This document shows positions 57,886 through 60,925 of a DNA stretch of 64,000 nt, piece after piece. The notes under the pieces are model-generated. The model did not search any database. It had not been told where the DNA came from and saw only the letters and a list, made by a program, of their open reading frames with translations. A program made the position numbers and the translations under genes. The first letter of the stretch is position 1. Each line of letters begins with the position of its first letter. The stretch lies in IMG/VR virus record IMGVR_UViG_2541047857_000009. One strand, written 5' to 3'. The stretch comes from a virus (taxonomy: Duplodnaviria; Heunggongvirae; Uroviricota; Caudoviricetes).

Positions 57886-58034
57886 CGAGATTAAAGTGCA
57901 TTAGTTCAGATGCAAATTGACATTTTGTGGCACAGGGTAGAGCTAGCGTGGTTGTCCGCTTTGTGCCAATAGCGGACATTGCTGGCTCATGGTATGTTAG
58001 TTTAAGGAGGCAGGTTATGCCCTGTATTTCGCTG

Positions 58035-58043
58035 TGGTATAAT
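58035..58043 (+). promoter_or_regulatory. extended -10 promoter (TGgTATAAT) for the AT-rich cassette
   Basis: Perfect TATAAT with upstream TG, then AGGGAG RBS and GTG 58077. Confidence 0.45.
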
Positions 58044-58076
58044 AGTTGCGCAATTGATACAAGGGAGCGTTACATC

Positions 58077-59039
58077 GTGAAAATTGTTTTCGAGGTTAAT
58101 GGAAAGAAAGTTCCACTAAAATCTTTAAAATACATAAGCAAAAAAGATCAACTCGAAGTAATGAAAAACTGGTTCTTTGAAAACTTTGAAGATCCGGCAA
58201 ATGCTTGTCCGTATGAAAGTAGAGAAGGTGGCTATGCTTACATATATGGCGGGCCGTATGATGCGAGCGAAGAACTACAATCCATCTTCGGTCAATATGT
58301 TAAATCTGAGTATATTGAGGAATTAGTAGATGAATTACAAACACAATGTTTTGACTGGTCTGGAAACTCAAATAATATAGATGATTGGTACGATGATGAT
58401 ATCTACGACGCTGTAACGTCTTCCGGTAATCCGTATTTAAAATTCATTGATAATATCGATAAAATAAAAAAACTTGCAAAAGATAAAACTGAACAACAGC
58501 AAAAAAACCACTTGCTTAGTTTGCTCTACACGAATGTTATTACAGCTTTGGAAACGCTTTATGTTGAGCTATTCATTAATTCTATAGAGAAAGATGATGT
58601 CTACATAGCCAATTGTATAGAAAAAGGTAAGACTGAATTTAAAGTAAGCAAAGATATTGCTGCGTTGCCTTTCAAGGGTGAACCCATCGAGAAAATTAGG
58701 GGAGAGCTAATCAGGTCAATCAAGGAACACTTGATCAGTGCAAGCTGGCATAGCACTAAAAAGGTAATCGACCGCTATGAAGCTACATTCGATATAAAAG
58801 TACAAAAAGACTGTCCGATAGAAGCTATTGAATTGGCAACCCTCAATCGAAATCACTTAGTGCATCGTGGTGGAAAGGATAAAGAAGGGAACCTCGTAGT
58901 GATTACAGACCAGGATCTTGAAACGCTGATTGAAAATGCATCGAACCTGGCAATTATGCTCTACAACAGTTTAAATGTAGCAACGAATAAAACCACCATT
59001 TTGCAACCAGATGACAAACCGTTCATTCATGAATTTTAA
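58077..59039 (+). CDS. cassette gene A: protein with C-terminal HEPN-like Rx4H motif
   Basis: 320 aa from GTG 58077 (alt ATG 58017); GC drops here; C-terminal LNRNHLVHRGG fits HEPN R-N-x3-H. Confidence 0.5.
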   Translation: MKIVFEVNGKKVPLKSLKYISKKDQLEVMKNWFFENFEDPANACPYESREGGYAYIYGGPYDASEELQSIFGQYVKSEYIEELVDELQTQCFDWSGNSNNIDDWYDDDIYDAVTSSGNPYLKFIDNIDKIKKLAKDKTEQQQKNHLLSLLYTNVITALETLYVELFINSIEKDDVYIANCIEKGKTEFKVSKDIAALPFKGEPIEKIRGELIRSIKEHLISASWHSTKKVIDRYEATFDIKVQKDCPIEAIELATLNRNHLVHRGGKDKEGNLVVITDQDLETLIENASNLAIMLYNSLNVATNKTTILQPDDKPFIHEF

Positions 59040-59054
59040 TAGCGCAGGTCATAC

Positions 59055-60056
59055 ATGGATATTCGCACACGAAAGACAAAATTTTTAGAGTCGTTAGATT
59101 CAACTGAAGTGATACGCAAAGCAGTAAGTCTCGCTATAGATTGCATTATTGATAATCATAATAGTAATGAAGATACCCCCTTAGTTATTACCAGCTATGA
59201 TGATCTCTGTAGAATCCAGGTGCTAAATTATGTACAGGAGTTTTGCGAAGCTGCATTCCCTGATATGGATGAATATTACTTTAGTCCTAACATACTTCGC
59301 ATCAACGGCAAGACTAGTGAAGAAGCTTGTATTAACTTAATTAAACTCTTAAGAAGTACAAAAGGCATGCTATTCTGGTCCGATGCCCCATCGTGGTTCG
59401 CTAGCCTCCCCGACGGATTATTCCATGTTGTTAACATTGATCAAAAAATCGTTACTCGCGGCCTTAATAAGAAAAACTCTAAGCCGACAATAATCAATAA
59501 AGATTACAGTGTAGATACACTACTATCAGAGCTATTTTTGAATGGCGCACACATGGAGCAACCCAACGTACACAACGTTTCTGAGGGAAACATGAAGTTC
59601 TATGATGAATGCCATGCTGGATTAATCAGACCAATACCCGCTCCAATAGGCGCGTCATACGATGAAGAGATCACAATTAATTCTCCAGATTGGCAAAAGC
59701 TCGCGTGTGTAGCTTTACGCCGCTATCAGTCGAAGGAATGTCATGACGGAATGCAATGGGATACAACCGATCATGGTTGGACTGATGTAATCGCGTATCC
59801 ATTCGTCGAAGAAATACAATCAATGGATAATAGTGGTTATCGACAATGTTTAGTTGGGCTGGTCACAATAAACAATTCAAATGCAAATTCTCCGTACCTA
59901 TCTACCGTTTGGATACATCCATTTTATCGCAGGAGAGGGTTATTAAGTAAGTTATGGCCAAAATTACAAGAGTTATATGGAAGTAACTTCGAAATTGAGC
60001 GACCTAATGAAAATATGAAAGCATTTCTGAAAAGTGCGAAACACGCAGATTACTAA
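59055..60056 (+). CDS. cassette gene B: protein with C-terminal GNAT-like acyltransferase fold
   Basis: 333 aa, 15 nt after gene A; C-terminus CLVGLVTIN...WIHPFYRRRGLLSKLW resembles GNAT motif A region. Confidence 0.45.
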   Translation: MDIRTRKTKFLESLDSTEVIRKAVSLAIDCIIDNHNSNEDTPLVITSYDDLCRIQVLNYVQEFCEAAFPDMDEYYFSPNILRINGKTSEEACINLIKLLRSTKGMLFWSDAPSWFASLPDGLFHVVNIDQKIVTRGLNKKNSKPTIINKDYSVDTLLSELFLNGAHMEQPNVHNVSEGNMKFYDECHAGLIRPIPAPIGASYDEEITINSPDWQKLACVALRRYQSKECHDGMQWDTTDHGWTDVIAYPFVEEIQSMDNSGYRQCLVGLVTINNSNANSPYLSTVWIHPFYRRRGLLSKLWPKLQELYGSNFEIERPNENMKAFLKSAKHADY

Positions 60057-60372
60057 TTTATGAATCAGTCTGTGGAGTTAGGGTTGGTGTCAACAAGTAG
60101 GGTAAGAGCCTCAACGTGATGCTATGCCGACCTGCTCCCTGAGAATTCACACAGAAGGCTGCTAGCAATGTCTGCAGATCGCTCAAAGCGGACTAGAAGG
60201 TTAGCTTGCGTCGGACTTGGCGTATTTAAAGAAGTGCTGGTGGTGACTGGTTGTTGTGTTCCATTTCTACAGAACAAAATCACAGAAACTATACCCAATA
60301 GTTATATTGAATCAATGATGAGACAGCCTCATATTTATCAGAACTGGTGTACGTCCAATACAGGAGGTTGTC

Positions 60373-60462
60373 GTGCTGGTTCTCAAATGTGCGCTAGCTA
60401 TTGCGGCTGTAATGGCAATTTATTGTCTTGCTGTTGTTCTTATGGATCGCCTTTCTGATTGA
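60373..60462 (+). CDS. candidate small hydrophobic peptide (29 aa)
   Basis: AGGAGG RBS 5 nt before GTG; MLVLKCALAIAAVMAIYCLAVVLMDRLSD; not in ORF track. Confidence 0.25.
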   Translation: MLVLKCALAIAAVMAIYCLAVVLMDRLSD

Positions 60463-60673
60463 TTTTATATTGGCGAGGTGACGGGAGTTAAGTAGAATTG
60501 CTGCGGGTGCTTGAGGCTATCTGCCTCAGGCATGAACACCAAAGGCAGATAGAGAAAAGCCCCAGTTAATATTACGCGTCCTGCAAGACGCTTAACATTA
60601 ATCTGAGGCTCAATCTATGAACGGCAAATCTAGGTTAGCCTCTTACGTGCCGAAAGGCAAGGAGAAGCAGGCT

Positions 60674-60829
60674 ATGAAGCAGCAAAAGGCGATGTTAATC
60701 GCCCTGATCGTCATCTGTTTAACCGTCATAGTGACGGCACTGGTAACGAGGAAAGACCTCTGCGAGGTACGAATCCGAACCGGCCAGACGGAGGTCGCTG
60801 TCTTCACAGTTTACGAACCTGAGGAGTAA
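60674..60829 (+). CDS. hok: Hok/Gef-family type I toxin (in-frame Mok extension from 60617)
   Basis: MKQQKAMLIALIVICLTVIVTALVTRKDLCEVRIRTGQTEVAVF close to HokC/Gef as recalled; 70-aa in-frame upstream ORF as for mokC. Confidence 0.75.
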   Translation: MKQQKAMLIALIVICLTVIVTALVTRKDLCEVRIRTGQTEVAVFTVYEPEE

Positions 60830-60898
60830 GAGACCCGGCGAGGGAGAAATCCCTCGCCACCTCTGATGTGTCAGGCATCCTCAACGCACCCGCACGTA

Positions 60899-60925
60899 AC
60901 CCGCTTCGGCGGGTTTTGTTTTTTC
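60899..60925 (+). terminator. rho-independent terminator after hok
   Basis: CCCGC-ttcg-GCGGG plus T-rich tract. Confidence 0.65.

Follow-up and report, generated by a model that had tools for sequence, protein, structure and literature searches.

Escherichia coli has a number of small inner-membrane regulators, such as AcrZ, MgtS, MgrB, CydX, and KdpF (as well as YohP-like proteins of unknown role), that are 25 to 50 residues long, contain a single transmembrane (TM) segment, and are not toxic; those of the AcrZ/MgtS type each have a short mRNA of their own and work by binding to a larger membrane protein. Type I toxins, including Hok/Gef, Ibs, ShoB, TisB, ZorO, DinQ, and Ldr, as well as TimP of Salmonella, are also short, combine one hydrophobic helix with a polar end, and are often borne by prophages or genomic islands. 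Lambdoid morons, such as bor and lom of phage lambda, and the hokW-sokW pair of Sp5 (PMC8621323) are accessory genes that have their own promoters, lie between backbone modules, and are expressed in the lysogen. The 64,000-nt stretch of DNA analyzed here (the window; IMG/VR record IMGVR_UViG_2541047857_000009, Caudoviricetes) comes from a Qin/mEp460-like lambdoid prophage and carries, just 5' of its hok gene, a small open reading frame (sORF) that shares features with each of these systems. This sORF is probably a real, weakly expressed microprotein gene of the prophage, equipped with a promoter and a ribosome-binding site of its own, that encodes a single-span inner-membrane peptide with the N terminus inside and the C terminus outside. 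The existence of the gene is already on record, owing to sporadic GenBank annotation and an entry in a published table of microprotein clusters (class Entero67K). What is new here is the footprint of its putative promoter and Shine-Dalgarno (SD) sequence across five lineages, its exact relation to the hok promoter, its placement outside both the neighboring gene cassette and the hok transcript, and the cargo hot spot that erodes it.

In size and in its helix, the peptide is similar to the AcrZ/MgtS-type regulators, and its Ala-rich face (ALAIAAV) would suit helix packing; however, those regulators are products of chromosomal core genes and have known partners, whereas the gene in the window is prophage-borne. 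It is not known to have a copy in strain K-12. Unlike the type I toxins listed above, to which it shows no detected sequence similarity (there were no family matches in Pfam at E ≤ 1, NCBIfam, or PHROGs), it has no detectable RNA antitoxin, and its strong SD sequence is not demonstrably sequestered. Its position in the variable region that separates the replication module from nin/Q is reminiscent of the morons, but the promoter of the sORF is a putative one, and, unlike classical morons that have their own terminator, it shows none before the terminator of hok.

The anatomy of the sORF agrees with the earlier note on this DNA, which had pointed out an AGGAGG 5 nt ahead of a GTG start and a 29-codon frame (its start coordinate, 60361, is one base ahead of the AGGAGG). 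In the sequence around the sORF (...ACAGGAGGTTGTCGTGCTGGTT...), the AGGAGG at 60362-60367 is followed on the plus strand by the spacer TTGTC (60368-60372), the GTG codon (60373-60375), 29 sense codons, and a TGA stop codon (60460-60462), and the frame is present in the program-made list of open reading frames. The 29-residue product has a grand average of hydropathy (GRAVY) of 1.81, with the top 19-residue window reaching 2.70, values that are compatible with one TM helix and support the single helix predicted in that note. Its only Lys is close to the N terminus (K5), and it ends with an acidic tail, DRLSD. With its small size and strong hydrophobicity, the predicted membrane peptide has one of the properties expected of a type I toxin. 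When the 560-nt intergenic region (60057-60616) was shuffled 5000 times with its dinucleotide composition preserved, only 1.2% of the shuffles contained, on either strand, an AGGAGG with a start codon 4 to 9 nt farther on and at least 29 codons; the frequency rises to 15% if the GGAG core alone is required.

The region upstream of the sORF falls into at least five lineages, A to E, that are only about half identical to each other. Within this diverged sequence, the lineages share the elements of a putative promoter (Table 1), separated by a 17-nt spacer of constant length and diverged sequence, and the sole alignable length change is found 3' of the −10 hexamer. Also common to all five are a T.TTG motif, a CA where transcription would be expected to start, a 5-nt SD spacer of variable sequence, the GTG codon, and, behind it, a frame that stays open and hydrophobic. 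Around the GGAG core, 11 of 13 positions vary among the lineage representatives. The AGGAGG itself has no segregating sites among the 61 lineage-A haplotypes that carry hok, and it is replaced by AGGGGG in 6 of the 131 loci retrieved with the sORF as an anchor, in a group that lacks hok. Such a footprint is the trace expected of a functional promoter and ribosome-binding site, and both elements may be in use.

Conservation of the frame in related loci had been proposed beforehand as a check, and the frame turned out to be kept, with a bias in favor of synonymous change. No indels between GTG and TGA were found in any of the 105 hok-anchored loci that keep the approximately 290-nt block carrying the sORF (60179-60469), which comprise 26 haplotypes (74 of 74 loci in an earlier sample). 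Variable events affected codon positions 1, 2, and 3 in 8, 7, and 16 cases, respectively (binomial p = 0.027), and the pairwise pN/pS ratio was 0.35 in the sORF frame and 0.79 in each of the other two plus-strand frames. In lineage A, nucleotide diversity (pi) at codon positions 1, 2, and 3 was 0.028, 0.016, and 0.084, as against 0.04 to 0.085 in the noncoding flanks. Most of the nonsynonymous changes are rare, and they are of a conservative kind (A to V/T, V to I, M to T/I/V, C to Y/F, D to N/E, and R to H). The most divergent copy, that of lineage E (locus L189), is ∼78% identical in the sORF and is accompanied by a nearly identical hok; it reads MLVLVLKGALAIAAVAVIYCLVIVLMDRIFE, has an in-frame 6-nt (two-codon) insertion and six synonymous changes, and retains the hydrophobic helix and the acidic tail. 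Each of these tests is modest when taken singly, but jointly they indicate purifying selection on the peptide, with omega estimated at ∼0.35 to 0.5. Two other sets of frames were considered as genes and set aside. The overlapping 96-codon plus-strand frame (60168-60458) has a pN/pS of 0.79, and conservation of its upstream part does not extend to lineages B to E, while the minus-strand frames annotated in phage HannyBb contain stops or acquire new ones and are probably gene-caller noise.

The sORF is common in E. coli. Of 5426 complete E. coli genomes, 2514 match the 311 bases at 60170-60480 with 87 to 100% identity, and 1685 of these, about a third of the total, have at least 80% of this stretch. 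Carriers include the type strain ATCC 11775 (100% identical) and BL21/REL606, and the block is also found in four isolated temperate phages (Tritos, Evi, mEp460_ev081, and HannyBb). Scanning the species representatives of GTDB with a back-translated pattern retrieved only Escherichia ruysiae, Shigella flexneri, and three contigs of metagenome-assembled genomes whose sequences are near-identical to the E. coli type. Likewise, an exhaustive HMMER search of 1.84 billion representative proteins with a 34-residue translation from the window yielded only near-identical E. coli variants and gene-caller artifacts, with no longer ancestral protein or distant homolog, and neither search revealed relatives outside Escherichia and Shigella prophages; a 40-residue read-through variant used as a query retrieved a single close relative. 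There was no annotated feature at the sORF among the 40 genome matches listed. Some GenBank submitters have annotated it, as a “conserved hypothetical protein” in REL606 (ACT39199.1) and as a “membrane protein” or “hypothetical protein” elsewhere. A literature search with the peptide string and with hokD/small-ORF terms found no dedicated study of the peptide. Although the gene is carried by roughly one in three complete E. coli genomes and by several inducible phages, RefSeq does not annotate it.

A translation-initiation signal for a close relative has been recorded in a published catalog, which answers the call of the earlier note for a translation signal. Table S4 (sheet Escherichia) of “The Cryptic Bacterial Microproteome” by Fesenko et al. 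(PMC11188072) contains a row for the BL21(DE3) copy (NC_012971.2, 1591437-1591524, minus strand; sequence VLVLKCTLAIVAVMAIYCLVIVLMDHLSD), which corresponds to the lineage-B variant of this analysis. The values given there for the retapamulin data set, in which initiation sites were profiled, are a TIScounts value of 13, TISfraction of 1, RPFcounts of 38, and RPFfraction of 0.897. The copy is assigned to class Entero67K, which consists of clusters under purifying selection, and to the 389-member cluster Escherichia_98807, with dN of 0.074, dS of 0.161, dN/dS of 0.46, and Kd of 0.098 (PMC11188072). The sORF of the window belongs to the same gene family, although 5 of the 29 residues of its product are different in BL21. 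The catalog entry is limited to the table row and does not cover the context, the promoter, the relation to hok or the cassette, or the function. The two loci also differ in that the window keeps the putative sORF promoter, whereas BL21 does not. In BL21, the sORF lies between a DUF977 gene and hokD. There (locus L190, 3486-3545, reverse), the fusion point of a truncated DUF977 gene lies 25 nt before the GTG codon, and the two frames overlap by ∼40 nt.

The sORF is correctly described in the earlier note as lying between a two-gene cassette (57927-59039 and 59055-60056) and the mok/hok frame (60617-60829), but of the three roles suggested there (a third cassette component, an independent toxin, or part of the hok leader), the comparative data support the independence, for a small membrane-peptide gene that may or may not be a toxin; the sORF is separable from both neighbors. 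It is not a third component of the cassette, because the block follows unrelated cargo in other prophages and only 241 genomes reach the cassette-side flank, compared with 1685 that have the block. Neither is it a part of the hok leader, because the −35 hexamer of the hok promoter begins beyond the sORF stop codon, 7 nt downstream, and the hok mRNA model begins at 60505. With the sORF as the anchor, 131 loci were retrieved; hok is directly downstream in 115 of these (elsewhere counted as 115 of 126 sORF-anchored loci), and also in a 116th, L111, which has a point change in the matched motif. Ten loci, including that of S. flexneri, have an intact sORF and no hok, with a different nin region containing a yeaR-like gene and ninB. 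Conversely, a scan of IMG/VR anchored at the hok promoter retrieved 120 loci, ∼74 of them with an intact sORF and 45 in which queH directly adjoins the hok module at ∼60438; a few others have left junctions at ∼60421 or ∼60430, and one has a tandem hok copy. In E. coli O157:H7, a degenerate remnant of the sORF is found. Since many hok loci have no sORF, hok does not need it; the two genes are usually linked but separable.

If the sORF is indeed a translated accessory gene of the Qin/mEp460-like lambdoid prophages of Escherichia and Shigella, it would form a self-contained expression unit. A modest sigma-70 promoter at 60307-60335 would direct transcription from around 60340-60343, and the resulting leader of ∼30 nt would present the AGGAGG 5 nt ahead of the GTG codon. 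The terminator scan detected no terminator-like site between 60462 and 60898, and the only other plus-strand site between the sORF start and the hok terminator is a weak hairpin within the sORF (60397-60416, 3 G-C pairs). Because there is no terminator between the sORF and hok, read-through into hok is likely, and the transcript would continue up to the terminator at 60898-60925. During lytic growth, the early-right operon would be expected to transcribe the gene as well. Based on the positive-inside rule, K5 would be cytoplasmic and the acidic DRLSD tail would be outside. The most likely role, judging from the way in which most bacterial small membrane proteins act, would be that of a tolerated, low-level peptide that either oligomerizes or modulates some larger membrane protein by binding to it, rather than that of a lethal type I toxin. 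The latter appears less likely because the strong ribosome-binding site is apparently unprotected, no antisense partner could be detected, and the peptide is translated in healthy growing BL21. An activity at the membrane, be it directed at a host transporter, at aiding or restraining Hok, or at phage exclusion, would mean that a very common contribution of prophages to the physiology of E. coli has gone unrecognized. As the evidence stands, the peptide is an ordinary member of the large group of uncharacterized small hydrophobic proteins and one that has already been cataloged.

Among the alternatives, the one that fares best, although we consider it unlikely, is that the peptide is the toxin of a new type I pair, normally kept in check by a small RNA (antisense or divergent), by folding of the mRNA over the ribosome-binding site, or by both. 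The size of the peptide, its hydrophobic helix and polar tail, the GTG start, and the prophage location beside another type I system are all typical of such toxins, and two candidate helices could occlude the translation-initiation region. The first of these, between the SD region (60360-60367) and codons 19 to 21, is 95% paired across 43 sequences and has one compensatory pair; 6 of 500 shuffles reach this level, and sliding the helix by +3 gives a similar result. The second, between the 5' untranslated region (5'-UTR) motif and codons 5 to 8, is 92% paired but lacks covariation. However, folding of the whole block was not more stable than that of shuffled sequences (z = −0.35), and the alifold consensus was weak. 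No conserved antisense promoter was detected: the sole minus-strand candidate that would read into the sORF (−10 element at 60462-60467) is polymorphic, with T or C at the key second position in half of the haplotypes. The terminator scan found no minus-strand terminator at the locus, and there was neither an inverted repeat that would indicate a divergent complementary small RNA nor an Rfam match on the sORF, although a computational search of this kind could miss an unusual RNA. Together with the lack of toxin family matches and with translation in growing BL21 without obvious harm, these observations argue against a toxin of this type. A relic of hok or a member of the Hok family was considered separately and rejected: the peptide shows no match to HOK_GEF (PF01848), and BLASTP does not align it with the HokD of the window at E ≤ 100.

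A second, quite improbable alternative is that the sORF is a chance frame in conserved noncoding DNA that hitchhikes with the hok regulatory region and is subject to background, “pervasive” translation. Several observations weigh against a genuine gene, and some of them are what this alternative would predict. The family is narrow, young, and confined to Escherichia and Shigella, and, because all its copies are at least ∼78% identical, the statistics are modest: the 14 synonymous events against 17 nonsynonymous ones give p = 0.063 for an expected synonymous fraction of 0.31, and the antisense frame that shares third positions scores similarly, albeit with stops in it. Between lineages, the synonymous sites of the sORF are far better conserved than the upstream region, so part of the conservation may reflect recombination together with hok or a DNA-level constraint; the last seven codons are in fact the left end of the hok module, common to loci without the sORF. 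The initiation signal is weak, with 13 reads as compared to hundreds to thousands for known small proteins, and the authors of the catalog caution that low signals at translation initiation sites may represent weak or spurious translation (PMC11188072). Moreover, the BL21 Ribo-RET signal is uninformative with regard to the sORF promoter, because the DUF977 fusion has deleted the promoter there. The proposed promoter, TTGAAT-17-CATATT, matches the consensus at 8 of 12 positions, which is below the threshold of the consensus scan and is the reason it was not listed by that scan. Finally, in the loci examined, the RefSeq annotation pipeline PGAP never calls the sORF, and rare frameshift or stop-loss variants are found in the protein collection. 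Nevertheless, a chance frame would leave unexplained the isolated conservation of the −35, −10, GGAG, and GTG elements amid a diverged upstream region, the third-position diversity that equals that of the flanks while positions 1 and 2 are three to five times lower, the in-frame insertion in L189 beside a nearly identical hok, and the 1.2% chance expectation for the arrangement as a whole. A weakly expressed gene under selection for its product remains the reading that we prefer.

An intact peptide gene could also serve as a functional partner of Hok, either as a membrane modulator (a protein-level antidote, an enhancer, or a gate) or as a second toxin without an antisense RNA, co-transcribed with hok. 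This appears very unlikely: the prevalence of hok directly 3' of the sORF, the fixed spacing to the hok promoter, and the likely read-through are compatible with such a connection, but the many hok loci that lack the sORF and the hok-less lineage in which the sORF is intact speak against it. Were it true, many prophage hok loci would be two-peptide modules, and regulation of a type I toxin at the protein level would be new in principle.

The least probable of the alternatives is that the sORF is a cis-acting upstream unit for hok, in which transcription and/or translation that continues into the hok promoter operates through promoter occlusion or a 5'-extended hok mRNA, with a peptide that is itself functionless; although in every lineage exactly 7 nt separate the stop codon from the hok −35 hexamer, no terminator intervenes, hok usually follows directly, and eroded loci keep a short frame that ends at the same TGA, this explanation does not account for purifying selection on the amino acid sequence or for the in-frame indel that keeps the helix, both unexpected if translation alone mattered, and it is at odds with the intact sORF in a hok-less lineage with a different nin region, the lack of the sORF in most hok loci of this type, and the absence of alternative terminator/antiterminator structures. 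A leader peptide or attenuator was rejected as a separate candidate, as no significant structure of this kind was found, the sORF contains no codon run, and the peptide sequence itself is constrained.

Table 1. Features of the sORF-hok region, with positions given in the window
Feature	Coordinates	Strand	Details
Left part of the ∼290-nt block, lineage A only	60179..60306	+	Homology with loci that carry other cargo starts at ∼60179
Putative −35 hexamer of the sORF promoter, TTGAAT	60307..60312	+	TTG invariant in five lineages (TTGAAT/TTGAAG/TTGCTG); flanks diverge
Putative −10 hexamer of the sORF promoter, CATATT	60330..60335	+	Invariant in all lineages
5'-UTR motif GTGTACGTC	60348..60356	+	Largely conserved across lineages A to E; can pair with codons 5 to 8
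SD sequence AGGAGG	60362..60367	+	GGAG core invariant across representatives of lineages A to E
sORF	60373..60462	+	GTG start, 29 codons, TGA stop; product MLVLKCALAIAAVMAIYCLAVVLMDRLSD; in the program-made list
hok promoter	60470..60498	+	−35 TTGGCG (60470-60475), 17-nt spacer, −10 TAGAAT (60493-60498); promoter scan
hok mRNA leader (tac/ucb/mok region)	60505..60679	+	Rfam RF01794, 113.3 bits, E = 5.8e-26, full-length
MokW-like 70-codon frame	60617..60829	+	Last 51 codons (ATG at 60674) encode HokD; Pfam HOK_GEF, E = 6.4e-22
Intrinsic terminator of the hok transcript	60898..60925	+	Terminator scan; first strong terminator-like site 3' of the sORF

Identical and near-identical E. coli loci have the gene order YdaT-like protein, replication protein, DUF977 protein, variable cargo, and hokD, followed by rem and/or a hypothetical protein and then by DUF968, RusA, and antiterminator Q. 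In the window, the cargo is the two-gene cassette mentioned above, whose GC content of 0.31 to 0.44 compares with ∼0.55 in the backbone. Its first gene matches PHROG 17908 and has a subthreshold match to the HEPN/RES N-terminal domain (PF18870, E = 2e-4); the second matches PHROG 16994, with a subthreshold match to GNAT (PF00583, E = 9e-4). The cassette (57927-60056) could be a defense or toxin-antitoxin-like pair.

The slot between the DUF977/replication module and hok (∼60057-60440) is a hot spot for cargo, with the sORF at its right-hand edge, as seen in the window and in loci L001, L003-L005, L126, L127, L139, L189, and L190. Its contents in various prophages include the HEPN-like/GNAT-like pair, queH, higBA, an alpha/beta hydrolase, a partial integrase, a methyltransferase, and large hypothetical proteins. 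In other prophages, the block with the sORF stands behind many unrelated genes, among them a hypothetical protein with an integrase, higBA, and DUF977. Its left part (60179-60306) has, within lineage A, a pi of 0.072, 43% segregating sites, and 22 gapped columns, and is not conserved in lineages B to E; it is probably an apparently unconstrained spacer. Insertions and deletions are concentrated to the left of hok and erode the sORF from its 5' side; insertions often truncate it there, with nested breakpoints at ∼60421, ∼60430, and ∼60438. The slot 5' of the prophage hok is bounded on the right by a small conserved gene, which helps to delimit defense and toxin-antitoxin cassettes. In eroded loci (L127 and L097), a very short frame that ends at the same TGA (60460-60462) is retained, encoding MDHLSD after GAAGGAG in the queH-type loci and MNLIVVIVLMVRLSD in the other; this may be a coincidence, or it may hint that termination just ahead of the hok −35 hexamer matters.

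The placement of the hok promoter fits the 5' end of the hok mRNA at ∼60505 derived from the Rfam model. RF01794 bears the name “sok antitoxin,” but its match lies on the strand that is sense for hok, covers the whole leader, and extends to the hok ATG codon (60674), whereas the reverse strand scores 19.9 bits; in the present use, the model identifies the leader of hok and not Sok RNA as such. The mok frame of the window is in frame with hok and encodes a 70-codon, MokW-like, N-terminally extended Hok, in contrast to the mok of plasmid R1, which is a separate overlapping frame. PGAP annotates hokD in the identical loci. The hokW-sokW paper (PMC8621323) does not discuss an upstream sORF. A weak isrK-like Rfam match at 60838-60919 (27.8 bits; gathering score, 50) overlaps the 3' end of the hok transcript and its terminator. 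In E. coli FY26 (L002, 4618-5146), an otherwise identical locus contains two tandem hokD copies that are 373 nt apart, the repeated unit corresponding to ∼60469-60834 of the window, and an IMG/VR locus has the same junction, with the hok 3' end (...GAGAC) joined to ATTGGCGAGG of the hok promoter.

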